NCBI GenBank assembly: GCA_963730935.1
Contig: CAVSTP010000004.1
Span: 384,001 to 448,000 of the forward strand
Direction: 5' to 3'
From: an uncultured Nitrospiraceae bacterium
Lineage (GTDB): Bacteria; Nitrospirota; Nitrospiria; Nitrospirales; Nitrospiraceae
Length of the DNA: 64,000 nt
Position numbers and translations under genes: made by a program. The notes below the pieces were generated by a model. It did no database searches and was not told the DNA's origin. It saw only the letters and a list, made by a program, of their open reading frames with translations. Below, piece after piece: positions 471 through 38,939 of this stretch; within the stretch, counting starts at the first letter, position 1; the number at the start of each line of letters is the position of its first letter.

Positions 471-740
471 ATGAAATTTCATGGAATCTCACTCTTGCTC
501 ATTTTCACGGTCCTTTGGCTGCCTGCAGCCAGTATTGCCGGCGATGTTGCACAGTCGCCGGCCACTCAAGGGACGCAGCCGCAAAGTGGTTCACCGGCTT
601 CAAAAGAAAAGACTGCCAAGAAGCCTAATCAAGATGACGTAAAATCCCGCGGTCTGTTCAAAAAGAAGAAAAAGAAACAGAAAGGGGGCTCGGCAGCCCA
701 TTCACAGCCTTCGGAAAAGACAGATTCGCCGACACAGTAG
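471..740 (+). CDS. Small secreted protein with DDVKSRGL tag followed by a poly-Lys tract
   Basis: GGAGG RBS; signal peptide MKFHGISLLLIFTVLWLPAASIA; low-complexity mature part. Confidence 0.75.
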   Translation: MKFHGISLLLIFTVLWLPAASIAGDVAQSPATQGTQPQSGSPASKEKTAKKPNQDDVKSRGLFKKKKKKQKGGSAAHSQPSEKTDSPTQ

Positions 741-824
741 TTGGAACGTGAACAAGTCCACGATGAGCCGCCTACACATGACCGGGGAACAAGACGAGAA
801 TCATCACATTGGTATGGAGGATGT

Positions 825-1355
825 ATGAAGCGAACAGGGCTTGTTCTTCTGCTCATGGTGGGCACATCCGTCATGTGTGGATTGCCTGCACATGCCGCGC
901 CGGAATTTGCCGTCTCGGTCGCGGGGCAGATTCAAGGGAAGTTTAAGGGCGAGGGGAGGAAGGGATTCGAGGACAAAATCATGGGGCTGAGCTTCGATCA
1001 GGAGGTGGTCAGTCCACGTGATGTGATCACCGGACAGGCCATTAACAAGCGTTCCCACAAACTCATCAAAATTAAGAAGGTCTGGGGGCCGGCGTCCCTG
1101 CAATTCGTGGCCGCCGTCACAAAGAATGAATTACTTACAGTGGTGATGGACTTCTTCGTCACCGATCAGAGCGGCATGGCCGTTCTGGACCATACCGTCA
1201 AATTGACTAACGCATCCGTTGCATCCTACAAGACAAGTTCCGACGTGAGCACCACGGCTCCACAAACCGATACCATCGAGTTCGTTTTTCAGCAGATCGA
1301 GATCACCGATCACCGCGGGAAGGGCGCTCTCATCGATAACTGGATCGCACCGTAG
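825..1355 (+). CDS. hcp: Hcp/TssD-family tube protein with N-terminal Sec-type signal peptide
   Basis: GGAGG RBS before ATG 825; leader ending AHA; Hcp hallmarks GQIQGKFKGE, EDKI..SFDQEVVSPRD..TGQ..KRSHK, TVKLTNASV, IEFVFQQIEI. Confidence 0.85.
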   Translation: MKRTGLVLLLMVGTSVMCGLPAHAAPEFAVSVAGQIQGKFKGEGRKGFEDKIMGLSFDQEVVSPRDVITGQAINKRSHKLIKIKKVWGPASLQFVAAVTKNELLTVVMDFFVTDQSGMAVLDHTVKLTNASVASYKTSSDVSTTAPQTDTIEFVFQQIEITDHRGKGALIDNWIAP

Positions 1356-2425: not shown

Positions 2426-4483
2426 ATGCGTCCAGTTCTGAGCTATGTTTGCTTGTCAATGTTGTTGATTCCCGGCATCGCGCTTGCCGGTGCGAACCCG
2501 GTCGTGGACGCCTTAGCGGCCGGGACAGTCGTGCAATTTTCCGGGAAGGAAGCCGTGTCCCAGGCGTACGAGTTCGATGTCATGGTTGCAACCAGCGACA
2601 AGAATCTTAGTCTGTCCTTGGCCCTGGGGCAGCCCATCGCAGTTCCCGTGGCCGCCGGGCGGGCGATTGTTGGAATGATCGAGCGGATCGAGCAGATCGA
2701 TGGGGCGGCGGCGCAGGGCTTGTATCGTCTCCGGATTGTCTCGGGCATGAACCGCCTGAAATATCGGAGCGCGAATCGCACGTTCTATCTCAAAAAAGTC
2801 AGCGACATTGTTCAGCAGGTCCTCAAGGACGCGGGCATCTCGAATGTGGAATTCCGCCTGGCCGGTTCCACAGAGGCCGAAGAGATGACCATGCAGTACC
2901 AGGAATCGGATTTTGCTTTCGTGTCCCGCCTCCTGGAGGGCGCAGGCATCCACTATCACATCGAGCCGACACCGGCCGGCGACAAGGTGGTCTTCAGTGA
3001 TACGAATACCGCCTTCCCGCCTTCGCCTGCCGGAAAAATTGTCTTTGCCGTCAGCAGCTCGCCTTCAGTGAATTCCTTCACGCGCGGTGTGTCCCTCCAT
3101 TCGGGCCAGATTCAGGTCGGCGATTACAATTGGCAGACTCCCGAGACGAATCTGACGTCCACGACCCAGGGCCCGGCCTTCGTGGATCTCACGGAGGGAG
3201 TATTCCCCGGCAGGGTCGAGACGGCAGCCGAATCCCAGGCGGTGGGCAATCTCCGTCTTGGCGCGCGCATCGCCGATGCGCAGGCGTGTGCCGGAGAGTC
3301 CACCTATCCGCAGCTTCAGGCCGGGCAGCGCGTGGTGTTGGGCAATCATCCGCGCGCGGATTTCAATCAGGAGTATGTCATCACGGCGGTCGAGCATCAG
3401 CGAACGGGCAAAGACTACCGCAATTCATTCCGTTGTCTGCCTGCCCAGGTGGCCTTTCGGCCGCTCCTCGCCACAGCGATTCCGGTCATCGGGGGGCTCG
3501 TGCCGGCGATCGTCACAGGGCCGGCAGGGGAAACCAAATTCGTGGACAAATACGGCCGAGTCAAGGTGCGGTTTCCTTGGAGAGCTGCGGCGGGAAACGC
3601 TGGAATCGAGGGTGATGCCGGATTCGTGCGCGTCGCTCAAATTGCGACCGGCGCTGGCTCTGCAGCCATGTGGCTGCCGGATGTGGGCGATGAAGTCTTG
3701 GTGGCGTTTGAGCATGGCGATCCCCGCCGTCCGGTCGTCGTGGGCAGCGTCTATAACGCCAAGGACATGCCGCCGGTCGCCTTGCCCGCCAATAAACATC
3801 TTTCGATTTTGCGCCACCAGGGTGCCAACGGCGTCAGAACGGAATTGGTCCATGATGGTACTCCGGGAAATGAACGGATGTTCATCCAGTCAGGTCAAAC
3901 GGCGCTCACACTTGCGAGCGGCGGTGGTACGCAGGTCCCCAGTGCCTTACTCACTTCGGCGGGCGACGTGGTCCAAAAGGCCGGCCGCGTCTTGTCGATG
4001 GATGCGGGGACTGATCTGGTGGTCAAAACAGCTCAATCCCTTTCGGTCACCAGCCAGAAAGATGCTGTGGTCACCGTTGCGGGGAATACGAACTTCACGA
4101 CGGGTGTCGCTCTGAAGGCCACGGTGGGAGCCGACGCCCAAGTGACCGTCGGAGGGAACGCTGTCGTCGACAGCGCAAAGGATTTCTCTATTCGGACGGG
4201 ACAAAACTTCCTCTTACAGAGCGCGAAGATGGCGCGGTTCACAGTGGGGGAGGACGCCTTCTTTCAAACCGCAAGATCCTTTGTCACGAATTCTGGAGCG
4301 ATGTTCCAATTTGTGGCGGGAGAAACAGGAACGTTCAAGGTCGGCGACGCCTCGTTCTTGAGCAGGAAGGACGGAACGATCAATCTGACTGGGAAGGACA
4401 TCGCGATTGTGGGCAACGGGACGACGACAGTGAGAGCCAGCGGCGATCTCATCCTAAAAGGATCCAAGATCAACCAGAATTAG
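2426..4483 (+). CDS. vgrG: VgrG/TssI-family spike protein with N-terminal Sec-type signal peptide
   Basis: AGGAGG RBS; leader ending IALA; motifs FSGKEAVSQAYEF, QYQESDFAFVSRLLE..GIHY, DKYGRVKVRFPW, PDVGDEVLVAFEHGDPRRPVVVGSVYN; beta-helix C-terminus ending LKGSKINQN. Confidence 0.92.
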   Translation: MRPVLSYVCLSMLLIPGIALAGANPVVDALAAGTVVQFSGKEAVSQAYEFDVMVATSDKNLSLSLALGQPIAVPVAAGRAIVGMIERIEQIDGAAAQGLYRLRIVSGMNRLKYRSANRTFYLKKVSDIVQQVLKDAGISNVEFRLAGSTEAEEMTMQYQESDFAFVSRLLEGAGIHYHIEPTPAGDKVVFSDTNTAFPPSPAGKIVFAVSSSPSVNSFTRGVSLHSGQIQVGDYNWQTPETNLTSTTQGPAFVDLTEGVFPGRVETAAESQAVGNLRLGARIADAQACAGESTYPQLQAGQRVVLGNHPRADFNQEYVITAVEHQRTGKDYRNSFRCLPAQVAFRPLLATAIPVIGGLVPAIVTGPAGETKFVDKYGRVKVRFPWRAAAGNAGIEGDAGFVRVAQIATGAGSAAMWLPDVGDEVLVAFEHGDPRRPVVVGSVYNAKDMPPVALPANKHLSILRHQGANGVRTELVHDGTPGNERMFIQSGQTALTLASGGGTQVPSALLTSAGDVVQKAGRVLSMDAGTDLVVKTAQSLSVTSQKDAVVTVAGNTNFTTGVALKATVGADAQVTVGGNAVVDSAKDFSIRTGQNFLLQSAKMARFTVGEDAFFQTARSFVTNSGAMFQFVAGETGTFKVGDASFLSRKDGTINLTGKDIAIVGNGTTTVRASGDLILKGSKINQN

Positions 4484-4504: not shown

Positions 4505-5062
4505 TTAGAACGCTTGGTTTTTCGCCAAATCCCATCCGCCCACCGAAGGCGATTGCTGCACTGGTTGTCCTGTGGCTGGATTGAATTTGAACGCCGTCCA
4601 ACGAATACGGCTGTAGCTGAGCTTCACTTCTTCAGTAGGTACCTCACCCTGTGAACGTCCTGCAGTGGAATACGCTGCCACTCTGACATCGAACAGTTCC
4701 AGTTTGAGAAAGACGTGAGAGGTGGCACCGGTGGTTTTTACAATTTCCACCACTGCAGTGGAAAACGGTAGACCGCTGGCTGCGGCCATGGCCAAGGCCG
4801 GCGAAATGGAATCCGTGAGCTTGACAATCGCCAAGGGTTGGAACAGGACTTTCGCCGTACCGGGTGGAACGCCCAGAGCGCTGGGCAATCCAAGTGCCGA
4901 ACTGTAGGAACTAATGTTTGTCCAATTCGTCCGACCAGGAAAAGTCGATTCTCCCTGTAAACCCTGAATCAGCAAGAACCCGTCTACCGCGCCAAAACTC
5001 ACTTGAACAGCAACGAATGACCATACTATTGTGCAAACGAGAGTGAGCAATGCTCTCTTCAT
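4505..5062 (-). CDS. hcp: Hcp1-type tube protein with N-terminal signal peptide
   Basis: GGAGGGG RBS; leader MKRALLTLVCTIVWSFVAVQVSFG; DGFLLIQGLQGES, IVKLTDSISPALAMAAASG, PTEEVKLSYSRIRW, GWDLAKNQ. Confidence 0.88.
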   Translation of the reverse strand: MKRALLTLVCTIVWSFVAVQVSFGAVDGFLLIQGLQGESTFPGRTNWTNISSYSSALGLPSALGVPPGTAKVLFQPLAIVKLTDSISPALAMAAASGLPFSTAVVEIVKTTGATSHVFLKLELFDVRVAAYSTAGRSQGEVPTEEVKLSYSRIRWTAFKFNPATGQPVQQSPSVGGWDLAKNQAF

Positions 5063-5134
5063 GACCGTCCCCTCCATCAGTTCGTGATGTTTCCTATCGC
5101 CGGGCAGTCGTCGGTGTCGATCCAGAGAACCTCT

Positions 5135-7015
5135 TTATTGACCCAGATTGACCGACAAGGGCTGACTCACCATCCCCGAACGGTTAACGATGACGGTGTT
5201 TTGGCTGACCGGCACTGGGTTCAATCGAACGCGAAGCACCGTATTGTTCGCTGTCAGGAAATCTCCAGGAGATGACGATCCTGTGACCACCCGTGGAGAT
5301 CCGTTGGCGCCTGTGACGACGACAGTCAGTCGGCACACTTCTGTCATATCCCCTAGATTCGTCCCGCTGATCTCCAGGCCATCAGCGGTTCGTACCGCCG
5401 AAGTAATGACTGGCGTGTATTGGGGCCACGTCGCCGGGAATGTGAACGAAAGAGGTTGGGACGTTCTGGCGGAAAGCGTGCCGTAGCCACTGGTGACAGC
5501 CACCTGGTTCGGAGTGCCACGCACAAGGGGCAGCGTTTGACATCCCGTGCCGTAATTCACCGCGATTTTTGTATTGCTCACTTCACGAAAATATGCCGTC
5601 GCAAATCCCTGGGAGGGAATGAATATCCCGGTCGATCCCGCCACGAATGACATGAAAGTCGAGGGCGGGTTATTGCCGAAATTGGCGCCCAGTACGTCGA
5701 ATCCATAGTTGGTCAACTGGATCGTGGTGATTGCAGGCGTGGGAGTGTGATTGATGGTAAGGGCTCGACTCATACCACCGGCGCCTGGGGCGATGCTGCT
5801 GATCCGATGGGAGATGGTGCCGTTAATGCCAGGATTGTTCACCTGGATGCGAACGGTATTCGTGTTCAGCCCGGTGACGACCTGGAGCGAAAGTTGCGAC
5901 TGCGGGACTGTATTGTTGTTTTCGAGGAGACGCAATTGGTTCACATCCGATCCAAGACTGGCCTCCGGTCCTTCCAGAATGTACCCCCCGGGAATTGATA
6001 CACCGTTGGTAAGAACGAGTCGTTTCGGTAGAACGGCTGTGACGACGTTGCTCTGCACAGTCCCATAGTGGGAATCTGGCGCGGTGATGACATGCGTGGT
6101 AGCGCCCTGCACGATTTCGTCTCGAACACGGAGTGTATTGTCATCGATCACCTGGATTTGGGCCCCGGTAATCACCTTTCCAACAGTACCGTCCGCCAAC
6201 CGTTGATTGGTCGCGGCTGCGGCTGTGATTTGTAGCTGGGCAACCTGCTTTCCGAGGCCCGGCCCAACGATGTCGTATCCCAATGGTTGGTCAGTGGAAA
6301 TTGGGAGAGACTGCACCCTTTGGATCACCGGAGGATTCGGCACGAAGACGAATTCCTGGTACGGGAGGCTCTGGGGGCCAAGAACTTGAGTATAGACAAC
6401 CCTCCCCTGAACAACTTCTTGTTTTGGAACCCTCCGTTGTACGACAAACGTGTAGCAACCCGATTGCTGTATTGAGGGTGCGTTGATGAAGAACCCGCCA
6501 AGAGACTGACTTTGGACGACCGCGTTATTGACGATGAGCTGAGGAATCGTCTGGGTGAGGGATGCGGTGTCATTTGGCAAATAGCCTTCGCTGAAGTCGT
6601 TGCCATTGATCTCAAGGACCTTGCCGTCAAAATTCCATGCGACTCTGGTGATGAGCGGCAATTGCACAGTAGGAAGTGTCAGTTTGGAGGACGGAAGGGA
6701 AGGGGGGGACGGCGGTGTGAAAGGGGATGGCGGCGATGGGCTTGAGGACTTTGGCGGAGCGGCCGACGCCTGGAATGCAGCTTTGGAAACAAATTGTCCA
6801 TTCACGGTGTATCCCGTTGGGCAGGTTGCCGGTGTCTTGCCTCCCAATGACAGATTGGGAATCGGCGATTGGATCAATGGCTGGGTCTGGGGGAGGTTCC
6901 CACGGGTCGTCACGTCCTCTTGTTCTGTTTGAGCCACCGCCTCGAGGCTTCCAGTAGAGCCTGCCGACAAGGCGAACAATAAGAAGATTGATAGACAGTG
7001 CCAACGCCTTCTCAT
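5135..7015 (-). CDS. Secreted protein with several IPT/TIG-like beta-sandwich repeats
   Basis: Signal peptide; EDVTTRGN tag; Pro/Ser linker; recurring P.IT...(L)EI.G.N(F/L)G units. Confidence 0.7.
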   Translation of the reverse strand: MRRRWHCLSIFLLFALSAGSTGSLEAVAQTEQEDVTTRGNLPQTQPLIQSPIPNLSLGGKTPATCPTGYTVNGQFVSKAAFQASAAPPKSSSPSPPSPFTPPSPPSLPSSKLTLPTVQLPLITRVAWNFDGKVLEINGNDFSEGYLPNDTASLTQTIPQLIVNNAVVQSQSLGGFFINAPSIQQSGCYTFVVQRRVPKQEVVQGRVVYTQVLGPQSLPYQEFVFVPNPPVIQRVQSLPISTDQPLGYDIVGPGLGKQVAQLQITAAAATNQRLADGTVGKVITGAQIQVIDDNTLRVRDEIVQGATTHVITAPDSHYGTVQSNVVTAVLPKRLVLTNGVSIPGGYILEGPEASLGSDVNQLRLLENNNTVPQSQLSLQVVTGLNTNTVRIQVNNPGINGTISHRISSIAPGAGGMSRALTINHTPTPAITTIQLTNYGFDVLGANFGNNPPSTFMSFVAGSTGIFIPSQGFATAYFREVSNTKIAVNYGTGCQTLPLVRGTPNQVAVTSGYGTLSARTSQPLSFTFPATWPQYTPVITSAVRTADGLEISGTNLGDMTEVCRLTVVVTGANGSPRVVTGSSSPGDFLTANNTVLRVRLNPVPVSQNTVIVNRSGMVSQPLSVNLGQ

Positions 7016-7060: not shown

Positions 7061-8764
7061 CTATCTCCGGGCAGCCGTCTCGGCGAATTGCCTCACACTG
7101 TCGTTGTAATCGAACAGCGCTAGCTGCATCTCTCGGATGGATCGATCTCTTGTCGCGAAAGCGATCACCACCTCACGGGTAGGGAAGGCATCGACGATTG
7201 ACGCGAAGGCGCCCATCTGCTGGCGCGCCTGCCGTGGGTCGTATTTCTGGATGTAGGCCTTTGCGATCTCGTTGATGAGCTGATCGAGCGCACCATGCAT
7301 CACGTTTGAAATGAGAATCTTCATGCCTTCGGGGGTGACATAGTTGTAGGCGACTTCGACCAATTGCTTGAAGATCGCACACACGGCCGCACCGGCTTCA
7401 GGGATCAGGCCGCAGGCGGCTTCCACCACGTTGCCGACCGTATCTTTTGAGGTCCCTATTGTGGATACCGCCAGATTCGCGACGAAGGCCCCGGCGCCGG
7501 GCATGTCGCTGTCAACCCATTTGTGGCCGGAGAACCGCAGGATTTCCATGGCAACCTGGATTGCCACTTCTTCCGGCCAAATCTCCTGCTTGTCCAGGGC
7601 GCGCTGCAGGGCAGCCAGCGTTGCCTGCGTCTGCTGGGGATTTCCGAGAGCAGTGGACATCGCTTTGACCTTTTGGGCGACGGACCGGACGTGGCCGGGC
7701 CGTATTAACTGCTCCGCCGCCACCCCGCGAATAATCCGGTCCAGTTCTTTCTGGTTCGGCAGGAGTGATCCCAGACTTCCGCCGGTCGCATCGGATTGCA
7801 TAATCTGGCCGAAAACCTGACTGAGCTGTTGACCGACAGGATCGAGAATCGCCGGCAGAACCTTCGTCTGCAGTAGATTCATCGCTTTGTCCGCAATCTG
7901 CTTCTGGACGTCGCGGGCGAGCTGTTTCATCGCGGGGATATGCGGCTCCATGGCGGCATAGATGCATTTGGCCGAAGGGTCGCGCTCGGCAAGCTTCTTG
8001 AGCGCTCGCACGGAGCGATCGAGCACAAGGTCCACCTGAGGCAGCTTGCCGTTCCTCGCGGATTCCCGTAATCCCGCTAGTTCTTCCTGCATGACCAGAT
8101 CGAAGTTGGTTTCCATCTGACGCCAGACTTCCATCATGATGTAGGGTGGAAACGCCGGCGGATTGGAGGCAAAACGCTGCGTCAGATGGACCATGTCGCG
8201 TTGTGCGGCGGACGCCGCCGTGAGACAGGCGTCCACGGAGTCCAGGTTCATCGTGCCAAGCACGGCGAGCGATTGAAGGTCCTTCTGGAACTTTACGGCC
8301 AGTGGTCCCAGCGGGTTGGCCTTCTGCATATCGGCCAATTGCTGCTGGAGAGTGTCCCTTTGCCGCTCCAGTTGCTTGAGATCCAATTCGACTTTGGCCC
8401 GGGCTTTCGCGGTCTCAATGGCGATTTCTCTCCCGACTCGGTCATTGAGACAGGCCGTTGTTTGATTCATATCGGGTGTGATGCGACAGCCCATAAATGG
8501 TGTCCGCCCCATCGCGTCGATGGAATTACGCAAGTCGTCGATCTGTCCCTTGAGCGGTCGCGTGGCATCTTTGATCATGTCGTCGAATTTATCTTCAAGA
8601 CAGCGTTTGACCGCATTGATGTCCGGCGTAATTTCACACCCGAATACCTTGATCGACCGGCCCTGGATCTCATCGCCGGGCTCGGGCGGGGTCAGCTGTG
8701 ACTGGGCGGGCAGTGGCATGAGGCACAGGACGAAGCCGAGAGCAAGCCGGATGCCATATCTCAT
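7061..8764 (-). CDS. Secreted alpha-helical/coiled-coil protein of unknown function
   Basis: Signal peptide ending AQS; GDEIQGRS tag; two GC.ITPD.N....CL repeats; coiled coil; Cys-bounded hydrophobic segment near C-terminus. Confidence 0.75.
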   Translation of the reverse strand: MRYGIRLALGFVLCLMPLPAQSQLTPPEPGDEIQGRSIKVFGCEITPDINAVKRCLEDKFDDMIKDATRPLKGQIDDLRNSIDAMGRTPFMGCRITPDMNQTTACLNDRVGREIAIETAKARAKVELDLKQLERQRDTLQQQLADMQKANPLGPLAVKFQKDLQSLAVLGTMNLDSVDACLTAASAAQRDMVHLTQRFASNPPAFPPYIMMEVWRQMETNFDLVMQEELAGLRESARNGKLPQVDLVLDRSVRALKKLAERDPSAKCIYAAMEPHIPAMKQLARDVQKQIADKAMNLLQTKVLPAILDPVGQQLSQVFGQIMQSDATGGSLGSLLPNQKELDRIIRGVAAEQLIRPGHVRSVAQKVKAMSTALGNPQQTQATLAALQRALDKQEIWPEEVAIQVAMEILRFSGHKWVDSDMPGAGAFVANLAVSTIGTSKDTVGNVVEAACGLIPEAGAAVCAIFKQLVEVAYNYVTPEGMKILISNVMHGALDQLINEIAKAYIQKYDPRQARQQMGAFASIVDAFPTREVVIAFATRDRSIREMQLALFDYNDSVRQFAETAARR

Positions 8765-8820: not shown

Positions 8821-9630
8821 CTAGTTGCCTTGTATCGATGGGTTACCGGTCGTCACGTATCCGAGCGGCTGCCCTGGTATCTGGACCTGGCTGCCGACGG
8901 TGACAAGTGGCTTTCCACCGCCGTTGTGTCTGATGAGACCGCCCTTGAGATCCAGTGTTTGTGTCCCCTCCATCCATGCCGTTGATGTCGCTTTGATTGC
9001 AGCGGAGCCCGCACTCTTGACATCGAACGAGGTACCGGCCTCGATCGCCACGAGCCTTTTTGAATTAATGTTGATGGTCTCAAGACCAAAAATCGACAAG
9101 TTTGGAGCCTGAAGGACGGCGCCTGTCGGCGTCACTTTGAGCACCGATTGGAGAGCAGCGACTTGACCGGTAAGGGCCTGAACCTGTTGTTCGAGGAACG
9201 CCACTCGTTGCTCCAGCGGGAGTGGTGCAGTACCGGCTCTCGCTCCGGCACTGGGTGCTCCGCCTGCTGCTCCGGGAAAGGCTCCAGCTGCCGCGCCACC
9301 GGAGGCACCCCCGCCAGCTGAAGCTCCAGCGCCGGCCGCTGCTCCGCCAGCAGCAGCACCTGGTGCTGCTCCCCCTGCCGCTGCACCCCCTGAAGCGGCC
9401 GCTCCTGCTGCACCGCCCGTAGCGGCCCCTGCCGTGGCGCCGCCCATGGCTGCTCCGCCGGACGCGCCTCCTCCCGATTTGCTGCCGGCCGACGCACCCG
9501 CCGATAGGCCTCCTGCAGCAGCGCCAGGCACCGCACGTTCACTCACCTCATCCGCCGCTTCGCCTAGGGAGATTGGGATACACAGAGCCGTGCAGATCAG
9601 GATCGGCCGTAACAGTCGCATGAGCACCAT
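8821..9630 (-). CDS. Secreted Gly/Ala-rich protein with coiled coil and gp5/spike-like beta-helix C-terminus
   Basis: Signal peptide; DEVSERAV tag; GGAAAG repeats; LEQRVAFLEQQV coil; alternating beta repeats ending NGGGKPLVTVGSQV...GYVTTGNPSIQGN. Confidence 0.7.
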   Translation of the reverse strand: MVLMRLLRPILICTALCIPISLGEAADEVSERAVPGAAAGGLSAGASAGSKSGGGASGGAAMGGATAGAATGGAAGAAASGGAAAGGAAPGAAAGGAAAGAGASAGGGASGGAAAGAFPGAAGGAPSAGARAGTAPLPLEQRVAFLEQQVQALTGQVAALQSVLKVTPTGAVLQAPNLSIFGLETININSKRLVAIEAGTSFDVKSAGSAAIKATSTAWMEGTQTLDLKGGLIRHNGGGKPLVTVGSQVQIPGQPLGYVTTGNPSIQGN

Positions 9631-29450: not shown

Positions 29451-29502
29451 GAGTGCCGACCACTCCTAATTCCCCATCCAATGGGTCGCACCGGGGCTCG
29501 CC

Positions 29503-30523: not shown

Positions 30524-31084
30524 TTAGTGCGGACCCAACACCTTTCTGATCTTATTGTTGGCGCTATTGAGTTCTGCACAATTGTTGGGAGGGTTGCAAA
30601 TGATAGTGACTTCGACAATGACTGTCTCTGCCGCGGTAAACTTTGGGTCGACTTTGAATTTCTTCGATTGATCGGGCGCGAGCGGAGCCACAGTTCGCTG
30701 ATCCCTGATCGTGCAATTGTTGTTCGCAATGCACTGGCTTGGATTGGGCGGTGTGCTCAGAGGGTTGTACCGCATACCTAACGTCAGAACCTGTACGGAT
30801 GGCATCGGCACGTTACCCTTGTTTACGATCTTGATCTCCGCCTTGTACTGGGCATGCAAGACATCGAGCCATTCTTGATCGATGGAGGCTGTCACATCCG
30901 GCAGAGGGAAGTGTTGTGGAACAGGCAGGCCTCTTTTCTCAACCTGTCCCTCTTGGCTGTTCGGTTCGGTGTTGGCCGGTTGGTCTTGAGCTAACAGAGA
31001 AGCAGTCGTCCAGCACGGAAATACTGCTAGCGCACACAGTGAGAGTATCAACGATAGCCTGCTCCACCGCGGGGCTAGGTGCAT
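30524..31084 (-). CDS. Secreted CARDB-like Ig domain protein
   Basis: AAGGAG RBS; signal peptide; QVEKRGL tag; LPDV, IVNKGN, PLAPDQS, ELNSANN motifs. Confidence 0.75.
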   Translation of the reverse strand: MHLAPRWSRLSLILSLCALAVFPCWTTASLLAQDQPANTEPNSQEGQVEKRGLPVPQHFPLPDVTASIDQEWLDVLHAQYKAEIKIVNKGNVPMPSVQVLTLGMRYNPLSTPPNPSQCIANNNCTIRDQRTVAPLAPDQSKKFKVDPKFTAAETVIVEVTIICNPPNNCAELNSANNKIRKVLGPH

Positions 31085-31133
31085 GTCGGTCTCTCCTTAT
31101 CCTTAGGAGCTTCGTCAGGTGGAATCTTTTGGT

Positions 31134-31357
31134 ACGTCTGTCGTCCTGTATCCTTCAAAGGTTCATGCCCAAAAATCGAAGGGATCATACACCTGCATGA
31201 ACCTTTGAGTGGCGCCTCGTGACCTACCGACGAGAGGACATTCAGTCCTCCCCGGCTCAAAGGAGGCAGATCATGTGGGTCATCGCCATCGTTTTCGTCC
31301 CGCTCATCCTCATCGCCGTCAGCTCGCTGGTGTGCGAGTCCTGGGAGTGAGAGTAGG
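31134..31357 (+). repeat. About 220-bp duplicated element, copy 2
   Basis: Perfect 14-bp inverted repeat TCAAAGGTTCATGC (31155-31168) / GCATGAACCTTTGA (31195-31208); GAGGAC-ATTCA-GTCCTC hairpin; AAGGAGG. Confidence 0.85.
31273..31350 (+). CDS. 25-aa hydrophobic peptide MWVIAIVFVPLILIAVSSLVCESWE
   Basis: AAGGAGG RBS; paralogue of 29366..29449. Confidence 0.6.
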   Translation: MWVIAIVFVPLILIAVSSLVCESWE

Positions 31358-31358
31358 A

Positions 31359-31988
31359 TTATTTCCCTCCCGTACGCACTCCATCCGCCCAACTCCGTGC
31401 CGCCTTGGCATCCGTGGGAGCCGGTTTCGTGCATTTCTTCCCCCGCACTCCATAGCTGATGGTCTCTGTCTTGATCGGGCAGGTGCCGAAGGGGGTGCCG
31501 AATTGGACGACTCCCTCAATGACGGTCAGAATGCTTTGCCCGTCGTTCTGCACCTTCAAATTGAACTCAGTTTCCTTTACAGATGCGGTTGCCACAGGCG
31601 TTTCCACTTCAAACCGCTTGGGTCCGCCGGCGGTTTTTGCCCACACCTCGCCCTGCGATAGTCGGAGAATCCGTGTCATGGGCTTGCCCTTTTCCCATCG
31701 AGAGATCAGCTTGAACGTGGTGCTTTCGTTCAAGGCGACCTGAATGCCTTCCTGAAACTCGATGAGGGCCTGGCTGCTCTCATCCGTCTTGAGCACGTCG
31801 CCCTCGTACAATGGCACATTGCCCTTTCCTTGAAGACGTTGCTGCACGCCGTCGGTTCGAACGATCGTCAGCGTACCGATCGCATTGGTCGCTGCACCGA
31901 GGGGAGTATTCTGGGCGATGGCAGTGCCGGTTACCGCAACGCAAAAGGTCATCAGAGCTGCGATGATGTTCCATGGATTCGATGTCAT
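31359..31988 (-). CDS. Secreted FecR-domain protein
   Basis: AAGGAG RBS; signal peptide; LYEGDVLKT..SQALIEF, LRLSQGEVW, FEVETPVATASVKETEF, LTVIEGVV. Confidence 0.85.
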   Translation of the reverse strand: MTSNPWNIIAALMTFCVAVTGTAIAQNTPLGAATNAIGTLTIVRTDGVQQRLQGKGNVPLYEGDVLKTDESSQALIEFQEGIQVALNESTTFKLISRWEKGKPMTRILRLSQGEVWAKTAGGPKRFEVETPVATASVKETEFNLKVQNDGQSILTVIEGVVQFGTPFGTCPIKTETISYGVRGKKCTKPAPTDAKAARSWADGVRTGGK

Positions 31989-32028
31989 GTGTTTCTCCTT
32001 CACGTTGATGCCGTTGCAAGCGTCTCGC

Positions 32029-33051
32029 TCATCGCGACACCACCACGCGAATCGGTTTGCGGCCGACCGGAACGGTCGCCAAGGTCTGGCCCGTACCTGT
32101 ATCGATGACCCGTATTTCATTGCCTTTGTCGTGGGCGACGAAGAGCCTGGTCCCCTCAGGATTCGACCAGATGCCGTTCGGCCCGTCACCGACGGAGATC
32201 TCATCCACGACTTTCAGATTTGTCGGATCTCCCGACAGGCCGACGACTTTGTTGAGGCTTCCGACCGTCACATAGGCGATGGGACCTTGGGTGCCTTTAT
32301 AGGCGAAGGCGATCTGTTGAGGCTTGTCACCCACCGTGAAGGCGCCGACTTTTTCATGGTTTTCCGAATCCAGTACATACACATCGTTCTCGCCGGTATT
32401 GACTCCCCACACGAATCCGCTGCGGCTCACGACGAGGAAATGGGGATTGGCGCCGACGGGGATGGTCTTGATCACTTGATGCGAGGCCGTGTCAATGACT
32501 CCCACGGTTTTCTCACCTTGGCTGCTGACGAACGCATAGCGGCCGTCGTGCGAGAAGGTGAGACCGGTCGGTCCCTTGCTCACCGGGATGGTGCCAAGGA
32601 TTCTGAACGTGGTGGTATCGACAATGGAGATGGTGTTGTCGCCGATATTGGCCACCCAGAGCTGGCTGTCGTCATTGCTCAAGGCCACCACGTGGCATCG
32701 CTCGCCGGTATAGATCGACGCGATTGTTTCTCTTTTTGTCGTGTCGATTACGGACACCCGCCCTGAAGCGAGGTTTGTCGCATAAAGGCGTCGACCGTCA
32801 CGGCTGATGGCGAGGTCATGGGTCGAGTGGTTCATAGCTGCGATCGTCCCGACGGGCTCGAAGGTCGTCGCATCGATGACGCTGACGTCATTGCTGCTCT
32901 CGTTCGCCACGTAAATCCGGGACGGTAGAGACGCCGAATCGGACTTCACCGCATAGGAGCCGATTTTTGAAGGTTCGAATGAATCCGCGCAACCCGCAAG
33001 CGTGAGAGCCAATATCGACAGCAGACCAAGATGATGACGTGAGCCAATCAT
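32029..33051 (-). CDS. YVTN/YncE-family beta-propeller lipoprotein
   Basis: LAGC lipobox; about 7 repeats of YVAN..SN.VSVID / IPVG..P. Confidence 0.88.
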   Translation of the reverse strand: MIGSRHHLGLLSILALTLAGCADSFEPSKIGSYAVKSDSASLPSRIYVANESSNDVSVIDATTFEPVGTIAAMNHSTHDLAISRDGRRLYATNLASGRVSVIDTTKRETIASIYTGERCHVVALSNDDSQLWVANIGDNTISIVDTTTFRILGTIPVSKGPTGLTFSHDGRYAFVSSQGEKTVGVIDTASHQVIKTIPVGANPHFLVVSRSGFVWGVNTGENDVYVLDSENHEKVGAFTVGDKPQQIAFAYKGTQGPIAYVTVGSLNKVVGLSGDPTNLKVVDEISVGDGPNGIWSNPEGTRLFVAHDKGNEIRVIDTGTGQTLATVPVGRKPIRVVVSR

Positions 33052-33083: not shown

Positions 33084-36000
33084 TCAGTGCACTTGGCCGA
33101 GCACCAGTTGGCCCTCGACCTCGCCTTTCTTGACGGGATGTTGATTTTGCCCGGTCACTTCCGGAACTTTTTTTGAGACATACCCGTACACTTCGTCGAC
33201 CGTCACGATTCCATCCTTGTCAGCGTCGGCCTTTCCGCGCAATCCCTCCAGAAGATAATAGGTAAATACGCCGTGGCCGAGCTCCTCCCGCTCCTCGCTT
33301 ACTTCGCTGGCTTTGCTGGCGCTCAGCACGATGCGGCCTTTTCCTTTTGACAGACGGTTGAGAAACGTTTCCGAAACGACAGCCCGCCGTGATGCGGTGG
33401 CAAACGTGCGGCCTGCCGTGGCGCCGCTATAGCACGAGTCGCTGATAAAGATGATGCGCTCAGGTGTGAGTCGCTGAAAAATCGTTTCGATCTCTCTCAT
33501 CGGAAGACCCGTTGTGTAGAGATCACGTGGGTCAGCGTCATATGGCACGATGTATTTTTCCAAGCCGTCGTCGTCGCCGGCCGAGGCATCCGCTTCCGGC
33601 GCCCCGTGGCCGGCGTAGTACACGATCACCGTATCCTTCTCTCCCGCCTTCCGCCTGAGGTCGGTCCCCAGCGTGCGCTTGAGGTTCATCAACGTGGCTT
33701 GCTCGTTCAGCAGCAGCGTGGTCTGTTCCTTCGGAATGCCGATGTACTGCCCGAGGTATTCGTAAAAGGCCAGCGCGTCCTTGTCCGCATAACGGAGTGG
33801 TTGGACTGTCTTGTACTGTGAGATCCCGATGACGACCGCCCAAATTTTGCCCCGATCGACCAGGCGGGTTACGTGCAACGTCCGGCTGGCGGACAGATTG
33901 TCACGATCGATTGCCGTCACGACGATTTGGTTTCTGCCTTCCAGCAGAGCGAGGCGTTCGGAAAATTCGAGATTGGTGGAGACATCGGGCACGCCGGGTT
34001 TAACGGCGACACCACGGTGCTCACGCTGTGTGAGCAGCTGGCCGTTGAGACGGATCTCAACTCGCGCGACGCCTTTCTCGCTGGCGGCCGCCCCGGCAAG
34101 ATTGATGCGATCCATGCCAACTTCCATTCCGTCGGTGGGAGTGGCCAGTGCGATCACGGGCGGCGCGTTTTGATACAGCTTGACGACCGGTGTGCCTGAA
34201 ATGCTCGGAACTGGCATCTCGCCTTTGATTGGCTCCTGCGGCTCTTTCACATCGGCTTTGGCCACCCATCCGATTTCCTTCGGAGAAAGTTGCACCCGGT
34301 ACCAATCGCCTAATTCACCGGTGACGGCGAGGCCTTGGTCTTTAACACCGGACGCGATGACCAATGTTTCCGCGCCGGCGCCGCTGTGAATTTTAATCGA
34401 GGCCGGGCCGATGGCGACCAGTTTATTGGTGGCGATGATCTGCGGAGCAACTCGATGATCGATCTCGATCTTGACCATCTCCTCCAGCGTGGTGTTCGAA
34501 CCGCGTTCCTTGATGAACAGTCGAAGGGGAAGGTGTTCATCCCGGATGTCCCGGCCCACAAAGAGGTTGGCGCTGGCATGCTTAGTCTCGTCAGGCTTCA
34601 GCGTGCCGAATTCTAGCAGGGTCTTATTTAATTTCACGCTGAGATTCGGCGGAAATGTGATTTCGACCGAAGTATGTTGAGCAGGCACCGCTCCGACATT
34701 TTTGACCGTGACTAGCAGATCGACGGCTTCTCCCTTTTGGATGCGCCCGTCCCCGTTGCCGACCGAGATGCCGCTGCCGTCGTCAATGATTTGCAAGGTA
34801 TACGCAAAGCGGGGGCGTGGAAGGCCCTTGAATGCGAGCATGGCTTTGAGATGATCCGGAACGAATCCATTATATTCTTCGAATTCCACACGCACCGGAA
34901 TGGATCCGTCCGGACGGTCGGCGGGAATCCGGACCGTCACCACATCATCAGCGGTCTGTCCACCATCGATCTTTCCCAAATAGAACAGATGTCCGTCGAG
35001 CGACGGATCGTCGCTCTTGATTCTTGCTTGAAATCGATAGAGTGGTCCCTTGCCTCTATTTGTCACTGAAAGCGTGAGGGTCACAGTGCTACCGGCTTTC
35101 ACTTCAGTCGGCTGGATGGCGAGATCGGCTTCAGGCCGCGGCGGTGGAGAAGGCACGGCACCGATTTCGTTGCCGCGCCGCTGAATCTTTTCGGACAGCT
35201 GTGCGCTGAGCGCCGGAGGTGTTGGCGGTTGAATTCTCACAGAACGGTCGCGACCGCCTGAAGCCACAAGCCCGCCATCCGGAGAGACCGCAACCGACCA
35301 GACCGGGCCTTTGTGGCCGCCAAGGGAATGCCGTTCGTTCCCCGTTGCCACGTCCCAAACACGCACCGTGCCATCGGCACCAGCCGAGATAAGGGTACGG
35401 CCGTCCGGGGAAAACGTGATGGCATACACTTCCCCTTTATGACCGGTGAGTGTGAAGCGTTCTTCTCCGCTGGCGAGGTCCCACAGTCGAATGGTGGAGT
35501 CGGCCGAGGCGCTCGCGAGCCACTGGCTGTTGGCGTGAAACGCAATGCCGTGGACGGCGCGCGTATGGCCGGTGAGCGTGTGTTTTTGCCTGCCGGTTGC
35601 CAGATCCCATAGGTGAATCTGCGTGTCGCTGCTGCCGGTCGCCAGCATTTTTCCGTCAGGTGAGAACCGAAGGGCAAACACGATGCCGAATTGCCCGCGC
35701 ACGGATTTCAATTCTTTGCCGGTTGAGGCATCCCACAATCGAAAGCTGCCGTCGTTGCCGCCCGTGGCGAGTGTTTTGCCATCGGATGAAAACGTCACGG
35801 AACGGACTGCACCGAAAGCGGAGGTGACAGCCAACAGCTCCCGCCCGGATGACACATCCCAGACGCGAATCGACGTATCGGCGCTGCCGGAGGCAAGAAG
35901 CGCCCCGTCCGGGGAGAAGGCGACGGCGTGCACCGCCCCCATGTGGTTGCGCAATACGCGGAGATCGCGACCGGTGTCGGATTCCCAGAGTCGAATGGTT

Positions 36001-36197
36001 TGATCGGTGCTGGCGGAGGCGACTACACGGCCGTCCGGGGAGAAGGCGACGGCAAGAACATCGTTGGTGTGACCGGTGAGCAGGCGAGGCGCCTGCTCAA
36101 GCGCCAAGCCCGTTGCAGGGAAAAGGAAAAGTCCCCACGCTGCCAACCAGAGACAAGGACGCGCGCGCATGATGCGGATACGGCCCTTTCCGCTCAT
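33084..36197 (-). CDS. Exported WD40 + Ig-like + SH3-like + caspase-family (C14) peptidase
   Basis: Signal peptide; 7 WD40 repeats (GH..V.AVAFSPDG..WD); WAVVIGIS.Y, YYAGHG, SDSCYSG, HGVFTYYLLEGLRGKAD. Confidence 0.92.
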   Translation of the reverse strand: MSGKGRIRIMRARPCLWLAAWGLFLFPATGLALEQAPRLLTGHTNDVLAVAFSPDGRVVASASTDQTIRLWESDTGRDLRVLRNHMGAVHAVAFSPDGALLASGSADTSIRVWDVSSGRELLAVTSAFGAVRSVTFSSDGKTLATGGNDGSFRLWDASTGKELKSVRGQFGIVFALRFSPDGKMLATGSSDTQIHLWDLATGRQKHTLTGHTRAVHGIAFHANSQWLASASADSTIRLWDLASGEERFTLTGHKGEVYAITFSPDGRTLISAGADGTVRVWDVATGNERHSLGGHKGPVWSVAVSPDGGLVASGGRDRSVRIQPPTPPALSAQLSEKIQRRGNEIGAVPSPPPRPEADLAIQPTEVKAGSTVTLTLSVTNRGKGPLYRFQARIKSDDPSLDGHLFYLGKIDGGQTADDVVTVRIPADRPDGSIPVRVEFEEYNGFVPDHLKAMLAFKGLPRPRFAYTLQIIDDGSGISVGNGDGRIQKGEAVDLLVTVKNVGAVPAQHTSVEITFPPNLSVKLNKTLLEFGTLKPDETKHASANLFVGRDIRDEHLPLRLFIKERGSNTTLEEMVKIEIDHRVAPQIIATNKLVAIGPASIKIHSGAGAETLVIASGVKDQGLAVTGELGDWYRVQLSPKEIGWVAKADVKEPQEPIKGEMPVPSISGTPVVKLYQNAPPVIALATPTDGMEVGMDRINLAGAAASEKGVARVEIRLNGQLLTQREHRGVAVKPGVPDVSTNLEFSERLALLEGRNQIVVTAIDRDNLSASRTLHVTRLVDRGKIWAVVIGISQYKTVQPLRYADKDALAFYEYLGQYIGIPKEQTTLLLNEQATLMNLKRTLGTDLRRKAGEKDTVIVYYAGHGAPEADASAGDDDGLEKYIVPYDADPRDLYTTGLPMREIETIFQRLTPERIIFISDSCYSGATAGRTFATASRRAVVSETFLNRLSKGKGRIVLSASKASEVSEEREELGHGVFTYYLLEGLRGKADADKDGIVTVDEVYGYVSKKVPEVTGQNQHPVKKGEVEGQLVLGQVH

Positions 36198-36452
36198 CGT
36201 GTTCTCCTCGGCCTACGAGGAGAACACCAGCCAACGTCTATGTATCAATCAACGAATGCAAATCCTTTAAGCATTGTCAAATTGCTACTTCTCGTATTTC
36301 CGGTCGAAAGTTGCCCGCGCTGCCCAGCCACGCGTGTGTCGAGCAACTATTACGTAAGGTTCAACCGCTGGGAGCGCAAGTCTATTGATGGGGGTATGAA
36401 GAAGTCAACGAAGCGGCTGGTTCACCATACAAAAGAGGGGGATAAAAACCAT

Positions 36453-38939
36453 TTAGCTGCCTTGGGGCACAAAGATAAAGTCCCCGAGGCTTTCGTGGCC
36501 GGCCATGTGGATGGGATCGTAGGTGGGGATCTGTTCGGTATTCAGTTTTTGGGACAGACTGACAACGCGTGTGCGCACGGCCCAGAATAGACGCTCTGCT
36601 TCAAGGACTGACATGTTTTCCTCTAGGACGCCGAGAAACGCGTCGGCGAAGACCGAGTGTCCGCTGCCGCCGGCATCCAGCACGGGTTTGACGCCGCCGG
36701 ATGTCATGGCGGTGCGAACCCGCTTCTGAGACAGCGTCTTGAGGAGATCGAGGCGGGCATCTTCCGTGAGCCCGGGTTTCAATTGTGCGAGAGTCGTGCG
36801 CGTCAGCTTCCCGCTAAAACAGGAGTCGGCCACCACGAGAACGTGCTTGGCGGACATTAATTGGAGCATATCTGTGACGCCGGGGAGCAACAGCCATTCC
36901 GAATTGTCGTTAACCTCCGCATCCACCGGAATCCAGTACCCGCGATCGATGCCCTGTTCAAGATGGCCGTGACCGGCATAATAGATCAACAAATTGTCTT
37001 TTTCGGTCAACATCTTCCGATACTGGTTCAGGGCCTTCATGATCTGGGAGCGGGTGGCATCCTTGAGCAACGTCACCTGAAAGCCGTAATTGGATTCCAG
37101 CACCTTAGCGACGGCGGACGCATCGGCGATGGCATTCATCAGCTCGGGCCAATGCCTGTAGTGGTCGTTGCCGATGACGAGCGCATGGTAGCGGCCGAAA
37201 CCGGCCAATTCCTGTTTGGGAGTCGTGGGAACCAATTTGGCGCCGCCACGCCCTTTCAATGAGAACTTCATCGCCGCGCGCTTGTTTTGCGTGTCGATGG
37301 CCAGGATTTGGACGGCTATTTCTTCCGTGTTGGATCGGATCGGCGGCAGGATGGTCGTGAAGATACCATCGGCATTGGGGTTCACGGATTCACCGTTGAC
37401 GGTCAGACTGCGCAGGCCGGCCGGAGCAAGCACACGCCCGGTGATGGATCGCCGGGCCCCCAAGCCGACTGGAATCACTGCCTGATCCGTGGTGACCTGA
37501 ATGCCCCTTGTCCTGGCCAGCGGAGGATCAATGATGTCCAAGGAAGGACCCTCAAACCCCAGATCGACGGTCGAGGCAGCCTGTAGCGCGTTCGCCTGTT
37601 TCGCCGCATCGGCTTCAAGCTGGGCGATTTTCTGTTGCAACTGCGCGATCTCTTGCTGACGTTGCTCGTTCTCGCGCTTCGTCTTTCCCAGGTCTTGCTG
37701 GAGATTCCTGACCGTCTCTTCATACGTACCGATCGTCGCAGACTGATCAGGTTTGGCCCGCAGCTGCTCGAGCTCGACGCGCGCCTCCTGATAGCGCCGC
37801 TCCGTGTCCTCGATCTTCCGCTGACCTTCCTGAGCCTGTTGCTGGCGCTCGGCAACCAGAGTATTCAACCGGCTGAGTTCCAGATCGGCCGTCGATAACT
37901 GTGTCCGGAGCCGTTGTGCTTCCGTGTCCTTCCTGGCGACGGTCTGCTCCAAGATTTGGATACGTTCCGCATTCTTCTCCAAAATGCCGACGCGAGTCTG
38001 GAGCCTGGCGACCTCTGAATCCCGTTCTGCAAGATGGCGCTGGTTTTGCTGCATGGCTGTCTTCGCGTCCTGGAGCTGACTCTCGAGTGAAGCCACTCGA
38101 GGGGTCGCATCCGGTTTAGCTTTGAGCGCTGCCAGATCCTTCTCGAGCGATCTAACGTGGTCTTCCTGCTGCCGGACTTTCACTCGAGCCTGTTGTGTTT
38201 CCGTCGTGCGGTCGTTCAGCTCCCGCCGGACGGTTTCCATCTCGCCGTTGACCCGTCCAAGCTCACGATTGAGAGTCCTGATTTCCTCATCCTTGGCCGC
38301 GACAGTCTGTTCCAAATCTTGTACACGAGTCATTGATTGAGGTTGTGCTAAAGGCTTGATCGAGAGGTTCAGCAGGGCGGCTTTGCTTAAATCGGACGCC
38401 GTGGCATACCACCGGAACGCCTCGGCAGGGTCCTTCGCCACTCCCAACCCCTGCTCGAAGAGCCGGCCGAGGGATATGGCCGCACGTTTGTCGCCCTGGT
38501 CGGCCGATTTTCGATACCAGGCTGCCGCCTGCGGGTAATCCGCCGTAGCGCCCAGACCCCTCTCATAAATGGTTCCAGCATAATATTGGGCTTCGGCGGA
38601 ACCTTTTTCTGCCTCTCCGAGCCAGATCTTCAGCGCTGACCGATAGTCCCCACGATCGGCCAAAACGTATTCGCCGCCGCGGATGGCACAATCTTCCTTG
38701 GTTGTTCGTACCGGCCGACGCTCGGTGACATAGGTCGTCATCGTGCCAAGCTGACGGATCTGACCGGGAAGGAGACAGTCCACGATCTCATAGGCATCGG
38801 CATTTCCTGGTCGATTGACGGCATCGCTGACGGCGGTGACCGAATCGGCGGCAGGGTCTGACGCACAGGCGAACAGCGCCATTGCCAGGAGAGACGAGGT
38901 GAAGTTCGTACAAAATTGGTCGCGTTTAGAGTGAGCCAT
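36453..38939 (-). CDS. Lipoprotein with Sel1 repeats, long coiled coil and caspase-family (C14) peptidase
   Basis: LFAC lipobox; Sel1 (AQYYAG.IYERGLG, A.AWYRKSADQG); YHALVIGN..Y, YYAGHG, ADSCFSG, HSVFA. Confidence 0.92.
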   Translation of the reverse strand: MAHSKRDQFCTNFTSSLLAMALFACASDPAADSVTAVSDAVNRPGNADAYEIVDCLLPGQIRQLGTMTTYVTERRPVRTTKEDCAIRGGEYVLADRGDYRSALKIWLGEAEKGSAEAQYYAGTIYERGLGATADYPQAAAWYRKSADQGDKRAAISLGRLFEQGLGVAKDPAEAFRWYATASDLSKAALLNLSIKPLAQPQSMTRVQDLEQTVAAKDEEIRTLNRELGRVNGEMETVRRELNDRTTETQQARVKVRQQEDHVRSLEKDLAALKAKPDATPRVASLESQLQDAKTAMQQNQRHLAERDSEVARLQTRVGILEKNAERIQILEQTVARKDTEAQRLRTQLSTADLELSRLNTLVAERQQQAQEGQRKIEDTERRYQEARVELEQLRAKPDQSATIGTYEETVRNLQQDLGKTKRENEQRQQEIAQLQQKIAQLEADAAKQANALQAASTVDLGFEGPSLDIIDPPLARTRGIQVTTDQAVIPVGLGARRSITGRVLAPAGLRSLTVNGESVNPNADGIFTTILPPIRSNTEEIAVQILAIDTQNKRAAMKFSLKGRGGAKLVPTTPKQELAGFGRYHALVIGNDHYRHWPELMNAIADASAVAKVLESNYGFQVTLLKDATRSQIMKALNQYRKMLTEKDNLLIYYAGHGHLEQGIDRGYWIPVDAEVNDNSEWLLLPGVTDMLQLMSAKHVLVVADSCFSGKLTRTTLAQLKPGLTEDARLDLLKTLSQKRVRTAMTSGGVKPVLDAGGSGHSVFADAFLGVLEENMSVLEAERLFWAVRTRVVSLSQKLNTEQIPTYDPIHMAGHESLGDFIFVPQGS

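Follow-up and report, generated by a model that had tools for sequence, protein, structure and literature searches.

A short arginine motif shared by exported proteins of a Nitrospiraceae gene island and its candidate caspase-like proteases

Tagged exported proteins of the island

The window analysed here is a stretch of 64,000 nucleotides (C4:384001–448000) in the 4.05-Mb, 99.9% complete genome of an uncultured Nitrospiraceae bacterium (G000), whose relatives are Nitrospira and Nitrospirales records. It covers part of a 62-kb island whose start lies 22 kb upstream of the window; the island holds five of the nine matches to the caspase-like peptidase family C14 found in the genome. Exported proteins encoded here carry a short motif built around an arginine, which we call the tag; it is located between the folded domain of the protein (the cargo) and an acidic disordered segment, at either the N- or the C-terminal end. 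N tags follow the consensus [DE][VI]QER↓G[VL], and C tags follow [VI][ML]xR↓GVE[GE] and are succeeded by a tail of 18–61 residues. Both classes, together with a site in an anti-sigma factor and several sites in the proteases themselves, reduce to the generic motif [VI]-x-x-R↓[GAS]-[VIL], where the arrow marks the predicted scissile bond. The tags are probably cut by Arg-specific C14 proteases exported from the same island.

The initial annotation listed 17 motif instances in 15 open reading frames (ORFs), and all are present there. Its figure of about 20 tagged proteins is reached only once the C-tag class is included, which contributes eight sites in the window and adds six ORFs or fragments. 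BLAST sorts the 20 tagged ORFs into 18 groups; the genes starting at 16585, 17632 and 26624 are paralogues. Among the folds proposed, trypsin is confirmed and the beta-trefoil is supported in part (DUF7910 passes, the ricin-type lectin profile falls below the cut-off); CARDB (E = 0.025) and the spike-like fold (E = 1.6e-4) match weakly and IPT does not match. Placement directly after the signal peptide is not universal, as TRARGV in the 11205 product lies at residue 168. In the 27242 gene, tags and signal peptide lie in different frames.

Most tagged genes lie on the minus strand. N tags are found in an exported coiled-coil protein (7061–8764, EIQGR↓SI, Arg codon 8657–8659; EIQSR↓SI in the G006 orthologue), in a spike-like protein where the tag adjoins the signal peptide (8821–9630, EVSER↓AV, 9535–9537), in a beta-trefoil lipoprotein (15238–16467, EVQER↓GV, 16276–16278) and in the three paralogues: 16585–17583 (DIQER↓GL, 17344–17346), 17632–18663 (DIQER↓GV, 18427–18429) and the broken copy at 26624–27202 (DIQER↓GL, 26963–26965). 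The best ESM Atlas score for the 16585 product, 0.85, is a lead only and assigns no family. In the spike family the segment ahead of the tag Arg is just ~6 residues long. Further N tags occur in an exported protein at 30524–31084 (QVEKR↓GL, 30932–30934) and in an exported ORF at 30150–30467 that seems to run on in another frame (GIEER↓AV, 30345–30347). The broken gene at 27242–27764 contains EIQSR↓GG (27617–27619) and DVQER↓GV (27533–27535). Looser sites are present in exported proteins at 5135–7015 (DVTTR↓GN, 6902–6904) and 11205–12863 (SESAR↓GI, 12672–12674; GTRAR↓GV, 12360–12362) and in a short, possibly truncated exported ORF at 28035–28325 (SMQVR↓GL, 28185–28187).

C tags, also on the minus strand, are concentrated in Cys-rich exported proteins at 14455–15045 (VMSR↓GVEGE, 14680–14682), 18761–19171 (IQRR↓GVEGE, 18809–18811; absent from the initial list), 24594–25055 (IMRR↓GVEGE, 24672–24674) and 25575–26036 (VMPR↓GVEGE, 25623–25625). 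A fifth Cys-rich protein, at 25102–25515, has both an N tag (DVQER↓AI, 25360–25362) and a C tag (LQHR↓GVESE, 25150–25152). The exported protein at 20448–21293 carries IMPR↓GVEKE (20529–20531), and a gene fragment at 19247–19378 retains only VMRR↓GVED (19310–19312) and an acidic tail.

The S1 protease lipoprotein at 12943–14370 (minus strand) also has both classes, AVQER↓AV (14224–14226) and VMSR↓GVEE (13054–13056). Its close relatives include proteins from Nitrospira japonica and Nitrospira sp. KM1. In 121 aligned homologues the tag Arg is invariant (102/102 and 120/120 covering rows) while the linkers are otherwise divergent, and both tags fall in segments of the AlphaFold model with a predicted local distance difference test score (pLDDT) below 50. 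The N tag lies ~30 residues ahead of the activation site, which in most homologues reads P-[VI]-VGG; because Pro precedes the site, a second enzyme would be needed for activation. Serine occupies the S1-base position in 111 of the 121, making the enzyme chymotrypsin-like. The tail (12943–13060) contains a conserved QPSPFD, its sole part above pLDDT 50; this is a weak hint that QPSPFD may be an inhibitory peptide freed by the C cut.

Two tagged genes occupy the plus strand at the start of the window. Positions 38–436 are the 3′ end of a gene for an exported protein of 522–534 amino acids that begins upstream (tags VESR↓GV, VRSR↓GL and ITSR↓AI); the interpretation of this segment as a separate 132-residue gene was rejected. 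The adjacent gene (471–740) encodes a micro-protein of 89 amino acids that consists of a signal peptide, a linker, an N tag (DVKSR↓GL, Arg codon 648–650) and a lysine-rich tail; tag and tail are kept in the relatives G006 and G025. The product predicted after the tag starts with GLF followed by a lysine run, and we take the whole to resemble antimicrobial peptide precursors with an acidic propiece.

Enrichment and conservation of the tag

The tag is genuine: it exceeds chance by a wide margin and is more widespread than first noted. In 23 exported proteins of the window part of the island, [VI]xxR[GAS][VILM] occurs 13 times, compared with 2.8 ± 1.7 in 200 shuffles (maximum 7). The resulting density, 16.9 per 10,000 amino acids, exceeds the 3.7 found in the rest of the genome's exported set (935 proteins), which is at shuffle level (87 versus 92). 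A matrix derived from 16 sites of the window reaches a strict threshold of at least 12 bits in 10 of the 23 (its training set), but in only 2/935 exported and 5/2117 non-exported proteins elsewhere. When training sites are left out one at a time, 6/16 score below 10 bits, including loose sites such as SESARGI and EDVTTRGN.

The pattern extends to related genomes. Ten related islands, which include orthologues of the matrix-training proteins, encode 224 exported proteins. N tags are present in 47 of these and C tags in 28; 65 proteins, falling into 27 BLAST groups, have at least one class, and of the ten scored for both, one owes this to a double count of one site. Strict tags of either class thus mark 65/224 island proteins versus 0/68 in the flanks, and the 935 exported proteins elsewhere in G000 contain two strict N tags and no strict C tag. 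The generic motif occurs 162 times in the 224 proteins against 29.8 ± 5.6 in shuffles, while control patterns give 18 with Lys replacing Arg and 42 and 38 with the aliphatic residue moved to P3 and P5, respectively. In five further islands it occurs 4–20 times versus 1.1–2.7 shuffled, and 5 times versus 1.9, inside the shuffle range, in their flanks.

Three properties bear on what the tag does: (i) the segments that cutting would remove are net negative in 46/47 N linkers and 26/28 C tails; (ii) P2 is Glu in 41/47 N tags and Ser or Pro in 15/28 C tags and (iii) Arg and Gly codons vary freely, with synonymous variation at every tag position. The codon variation indicates that the tag is kept as protein, and it rules out an origin as a DNA repeat. 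A sorting role, also proposed initially, finds no support: in C-terminal sorting signals of the PEP-CTERM and LPXTG type a membrane helix and then a basic tail come after the motif, whereas no membrane segment follows the tag, whose position is variable, and C tags precede 18–61 hydrophilic, mostly acidic residues. No Pfam or NCBIfam model covers the tag or most of the cargo.

Caspase-like proteases of the island

The upstream part of the island encodes an exported metacaspase-DUF4384 protein (C4:361488–363764, 20–22 kb upstream of the window), a ZAS anti-sigma factor, a sigma factor with extracytoplasmic function (ECF), a DUF4384-type protein, two WD40 caspases and further exported cargo; the DUF4384 proteins themselves contain several tags. 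Within the window are the two exported C14 proteases recognized at the outset, both on the minus strand and both with intact YYAGHG and DSC motifs. The first, at 33084–36170, has a WD40-CARDB-SH3-Ig-C14 architecture and a Sec-type signal, and its own sites QREHR↓GV (34014–34016) and ATASRR↓AV (33384–33386) are each kept in 17/17 sequences. The second, at 36453–38939, is a Sel1-coiled-coil-C14 lipoprotein and an optional member of the system, with a lipobox-like LFAC and one site of its own (LARTR↓GI, 37506–37508); both export signals were judged by eye and hydropathy.

All three enzymes retain the His-Cys dyad and two acidic S1 residues. The GHG and D-S-C motifs are conserved in 77/77 and 79/79 metacaspase sequences, and the alpha1 Asp and the Asp two residues before the catalytic Cys in 76/76 and 79/79; for the WD40 and Sel1 enzymes dyad and S1 residues are conserved in 17/17 and 6/6. 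The invariant S1 Asp residues align with the Arg-binding Asp residues of MALT1 and TbMCA2 (PMC4357240; this and the other papers cited are drawn on in part). The metacaspase-DUF4384 model (pLDDT 83.9) has the caspase–haemoglobinase fold, with AtMC9 (Foldseek E = 4e-18) and AtMC4 as its closest structures; its profile matches Yca1 at E = 4e-35, and the aligned region contains several invariant Asp residues. The WD40 caspase matches AtMC4, and the best solved match of the Sel1 caspase is MALT1 (E = 1e-8).

The post-catalytic loop of the metacaspase contains three Args present in 79/79 covering rows, two more in 73/75 and 71/72, and one in only 48/71; in the model, two of the three sites fall in parts of the loop predicted with low confidence. 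The C-terminal end of the G000 protein differs from its orthologues, possibly by a frameshift, with the catalytic and DUF4384 domains intact.

An ECF sigma factor, its anti-sigma factor and a shared promoter

The ECF sigma gene adjoins that of the ZAS anti-sigma factor, which has one membrane helix and a periplasmic part. Just outside the helix lies a tag whose Arg is the only invariant column of the anti-sigma alignment (67/67), with Val or Ile at P4 in 66; some of the homologues come from records labelled Gammaproteobacteria or Burkholderiales. On the divergent strand upstream of the sigma operon, TGAAC(C/T)-N15/16-CGAC is found in 37/43 sequences. The pattern heads the operons of the G000 island, which contains 12 such sites versus 0.83 expected and 1–3 for wrong-spacer controls. 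The 15 related islands contain 125 in 627 kb, of which about one per island is the source site of the pattern, compared with 3 in 235 kb of flanks and an average of 5 for wrong spacers. A gene pair with a ZAS helix and periplasmic part, and a bipartite promoter ahead of both sigma and target genes, are features of ECF/anti-sigma pairs controlled by regulated intramembrane proteolysis (RIP). In such pairs a site-2 protease acts after the site-1 cut, for which the invariant anti-sigma Arg is the candidate position here.

A promoter matrix trained on the 15 other islands only places 11 of the genome's top 17 matches in the island; these include sites before the sigma, metacaspase and WD40 caspase genes and four more in the window. 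Minus-strand sites of this type occur at 19417–19442 (TGAACC-N16-CGAC, ahead of the 19378–4505 gene run), 22533–22558, 29234–29259, 31140–31165 and 36338–36363, the last preceding the WD40 caspase and ranking second in the genome. For the Sel1 caspase the one site present is imperfect (rank 28), and weak promoter-like sites lie on both strands by the divergent autotransporter gene, at 38998 (minus) and 39104 (plus). Two of the six top sites outside the island precede orphan exported proteins tagged VQER↓AV and IEDR↓GV; the other four are not followed by tagged genes. From position we infer that these in silico promoters are used by the island's ECF sigma factor.

The intergenic regions 29190–29500 and 31085–31360 are alike, each with a minus-strand promoter and a weaker plus-strand mirror site (29291 and 31198), suggesting a local duplication.

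Co-occurrence across Nitrospirales genomes

We counted two strict DNA tag patterns in 151 genomes of the order Nitrospirales and compared the counts with orthologue searches. At least five strict tags are present in 10/27 genomes with metacaspase-DUF4384 versus 0/124 without it, and in 10/19 genomes with the WD40 caspase versus 0/132 without it; all 19 also have the metacaspase. The ten positive genomes span six genera and three families. For the Sel1 caspase the figures are 2/21 versus 8/130 (p = 0.63), and no association emerges at thresholds of 3 to 6 tags (p = 0.26–0.63), so it was rejected as a tag partner. Of the enzyme pair first put forward, then, the WD40 caspase tracks the tags and the Sel1 caspase does not. 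Nor is the WD40 caspase a strict requirement: G073 and G085 have no match to the WD40 query yet have tagged cargo beside the metacaspase, and the trio of sigma factor, anti-sigma factor and metacaspase is therefore the most constant core.

The DNA patterns let through some false matches (Ser or Met codons). Among genomes lacking the core enzymes the count peaks at four, in G163, where the one locus inspected had no N tag. Five examined islands from low-tag metacaspase genomes have the generic motif above shuffle level. The system as a whole is found again in 15 related islands and extends to orphan genes that have its promoter, which is at odds with the initial idea of a locus-specific secretome. 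Second caspase loci in G001, G025 and G031 have other caspases and the same promoter; cargo in G001 and G025 uses a VESR↓G dialect, hinting at different enzyme–tag pairs.

Other genes of the window

Several exported proteins of the window are untagged. Two Hcp-like tube proteins (825–1355, plus strand; 4505–5077, minus strand) and a VgrG (2426–4483, plus strand) have signal peptides, and a T4 gp19-type tail-tube protein (9995–11017, minus strand) has a Tat-type signal. Sec- or Tat-type export signals on the Hcp, VgrG, spike-like and gp19-type proteins are kept in relatives. Profiles of the contractile sheath (PF04984, PF05943), the part that defines a type VI secretion or contractile injection system, found no match in this 99.9% complete genome, with control profiles positive.

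A DsbA-like exported thioredoxin (28258–29190, minus strand) is the first gene after a promoter. A FecR-domain protein and a YVTN beta-propeller lipoprotein (31359–33051, minus strand) are companions of the WD40 caspase, and an autotransporter beta-barrel (39103–40539, plus strand) is the divergent partner of the Sel1 caspase. The mix of protease, beta-trefoil, Cys-rich, DsbA and sheathless tube and spike proteins may point to an inducible extracellular defence or matrix kit. Farther along, an FG-GAP repeat lipoprotein (45794–47363) is divided over two frames and two TPR-PilZ proteins (48352–49434 and 52386–53303) lie amid several response regulators. Elsewhere in the genome, an exported TPR-CHAT protease (C4:25206–28306) adjoins an exported protein with Arg-Gly/Val motifs of its own, possibly a parallel system.

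A model for tag cleavage

We consider it likely that the tags are cleavage sites at which exported Arg-specific C14 proteases of the island strip acidic masks from the cargo. This reading, reached from sequence comparison and prediction, fits the acidic S1 pockets, the motifs in the linkers of the proteases themselves, the disorder at the sites and the co-occurrence data. The likeliest cutters are metacaspase-DUF4384 and the WD40 caspase at 33084. The mechanism initially proposed was thus probably right in kind, though one of the two enzymes it named was wrong and the regulator was missed; the anti-sigma factor, the promoter and the C-terminal tags had not been noted.

In the model, a signal received after Sec export (possibly Ca2+, as for metacaspases) would let the protease cut its own post-catalytic loop. 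The protease would then clip the anti-sigma factor as a site-1 protease, freeing the ECF sigma factor, which would transcribe its own gene, the proteases and the cargo in a positive feedback loop. Cutting at the tags would remove the acidic masks and release mature cargo (protease, lectin-like, Cys-rich and spike-like proteins). That anti-sigma clipping and sigma feedback close such a loop has, on the sequences, close to an even chance. Slightly short of even is the full proposal of a self-amplifying extracytoplasmic circuit, in which one metacaspase would be the site-1 protease of its own sigma factor and would also serve a secretome of interchangeable members as convertase. Genes would be recruited as cargo through acquisition of a promoter and of an acidic mask that bears the cleavage code; the products would include Sec- and Tat-exported tube and spike proteins without a sheath.

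The sites themselves can be compared with those of MALT1, for which a consensus of L-X-P/S-R↓G and the sites FMSR↓GV in CYLD and LIPR↓G in Roquin are given in PMC6237847 and PMC4900422. Like these, the tags have an aliphatic P4, Arg at P1 and a small P1′, and the C tags VMSR↓GV, IMPR↓GV and FMSR↓GV are close to the CYLD and Roquin sites. The island enzymes differ in being bacterial and extracytoplasmic, and metacaspases are the nearer match for the two whose occurrence follows the tags; MALT1-type paracaspases are further marked by an L5 Glu and by activation through dimerisation.

A number of observations weigh against cleavage by the island caspases. The MALT1 rule of Ser or Pro at P2 is broken by the N tags, as Glu (41/47) is outside that consensus, and P2 varies among classes: Glu in N tags, Ser, Arg or Pro in C tags and Thr, Glu or Ser in the anti-sigma factors. 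Many island proteins lack a good site: 13/23 exported proteins in the window score below 12 bits, the held-out upstream part of the island passes in just 1/7 (p = 0.02) and 107/224 exported proteins of related islands lack even the generic motif, which was itself refined only after the relatives' sequences were known. Four tagged ORFs (26624, 27242, 30150 and the 19247 fragment), and possibly 28035, are broken in the assembly. Across genomes, 17/27 with metacaspase-DUF4384 have fewer than five strict tags, the threshold of five was picked after the counts were known, and kinship makes the genomes non-independent. Outside the island the genome has one CHAT protease and four further C14 genes, and the tagged orphan at C4:821804 has no promoter match. 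Finally, gene calls from our hexamer caller and signal peptides from a hydropathy rule are crude, the latter over-calling signals (1533/3916 proteins before filtering).

Alternative readings of the tag

Of the other explanations, the strongest, though an unlikely one, is that the tags serve as docking or pseudo-substrate motifs: the proteases or DUF4384 domains would bind them to assemble or inhibit a complex while the cargo stays uncut. The presence of several tags within the DUF4384 proteins themselves would fit, as would the micro-protein at 471, which is hardly more than a signal, a tag and a basic tail and looks decoy-like. Docking does not account for the acidic disordered segment that always flanks one side of the tag and is mirrored between the N and C classes, nor for the small P1′ and aliphatic P2′, which are like those of true MALT1 sites; the handful of residues ahead of the Arg in the spike family also argues against it.

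We regard as improbable that another Arg-specific protease (CHAT, an unlinked C14 enzyme or the island S1 protease) cuts the tags. The genome does offer one CHAT, 14 trypsin-family and nine C14 matches, but the tags track two island caspases across the 151 genomes. The island trypsin-family protease is excluded as the cutter by the Ser at its S1 base, and clostripain was not found in the genome, with its control positive in three genomes. A search for the C25 gingipain gave no match in the genome, but its control was blank too.

It is still less probable that the C14 enzyme is a transpeptidase, in which the acyl-enzyme formed at a C tag would be resolved by a new G-V/L N-terminus, linking or cyclising cargo; the boldest form of the circuit, in which the metacaspase also ligates C-tagged to N-tagged proteins, is equally doubtful. 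Two distinct tag classes with identical P1′–P2′ residues, both present in the trypsin family and in the 25102 protein, would suit such a reaction, and clan CD ligases with a Gly-Leu preference exist. We know of no ligase activity in C14, however, and the N tag of the trypsin, ~30 residues ahead of its activation site, also counts against it. That the tag is a functionless passenger in leader and tail cassettes shuffled among genes is barely credible: fragments are common and some neighbouring tails are near-identical (PTSSEKEGK), but synonymous codons vary, the Arg is invariant amid diverging flanks, and the anti-sigma factor and caspases have the tag yet share no cassette with the cargo.

Relation to known systems

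The preferred reading, cleavage by exported C14 proteases, has partial precedents. With the C14B metacaspases (Yca1, AtMC4/9, TbMCA2) and the orthocaspase MaOC1 the island enzymes share the His-Cys dyad and acidic S1 residues, and type II metacaspases are activated by a cut at Arg or Lys in a linker (PMC9626678); cleavage sites were left undetermined in the portion drawn on of the MaOC1 substrate study (PMC7935541). The island enzymes differ in being predicted to be exported, in their multidomain architecture, in their tie to an ECF sigma factor and in having a substrate code on many co-regulated proteins. In another clan CD family, C25, the Arg-gingipain matures type V fimbrial lipoproteins: once the signal peptide is gone, it takes off an N-terminal extension at an exposed Arg (PMC5789003), much like the step proposed here; the island substrates, in contrast, comprise 27 BLAST groups with N- and C-terminal sites and a common multi-residue motif.

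On the regulatory side, Myxococcus DdvS–DdvA also pairs an ECF sigma factor with a ZAS-type membrane anti-sigma factor under RIP, and a caspase-fold site-1 step has been proposed for DdvA (PMC11506125). DdvA has its own CHAT domain and governs CRISPR and CBASS genes, whereas the island has a separate putative C14 cutter and a secretome regulon bearing the same site. The main text of an ECF re-classification (PMC7826278) mentions neither caspase, peptidase, CHAT nor Nitrospira. In the bacterial gasdermin system a dedicated caspase-like protease encoded alongside cuts off a short C-terminal peptide that is inhibitory (bioRxiv 10.1101/2021.06.07.447441); that system is cytoplasmic, with one substrate and, in Runella, Leu at P1, and no gasdermin is among the Pfam matches of the window. 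We found no published description of the tag, promoter or module in a search largely limited to openly accessible literature.

Among bacteria, the Nitrospirae are rich in caspase homologues, which in many cases appear to be exported; even so, these proteins are mostly treated as enzymes of cell death, and hardly any of their substrates are known (PMC3501461). As to what extracellular bacterial metacaspases cut, the locus offers candidates for the enzymes, a putative cleavage code, substrate families by the dozen, and a regulator with its promoter. If true, the model would show a convertase-like function of caspases, unconnected with death, in soil and water-treatment nitrifiers, and the tags may represent a prokaryotic counterpart of MALT1-type recognition.

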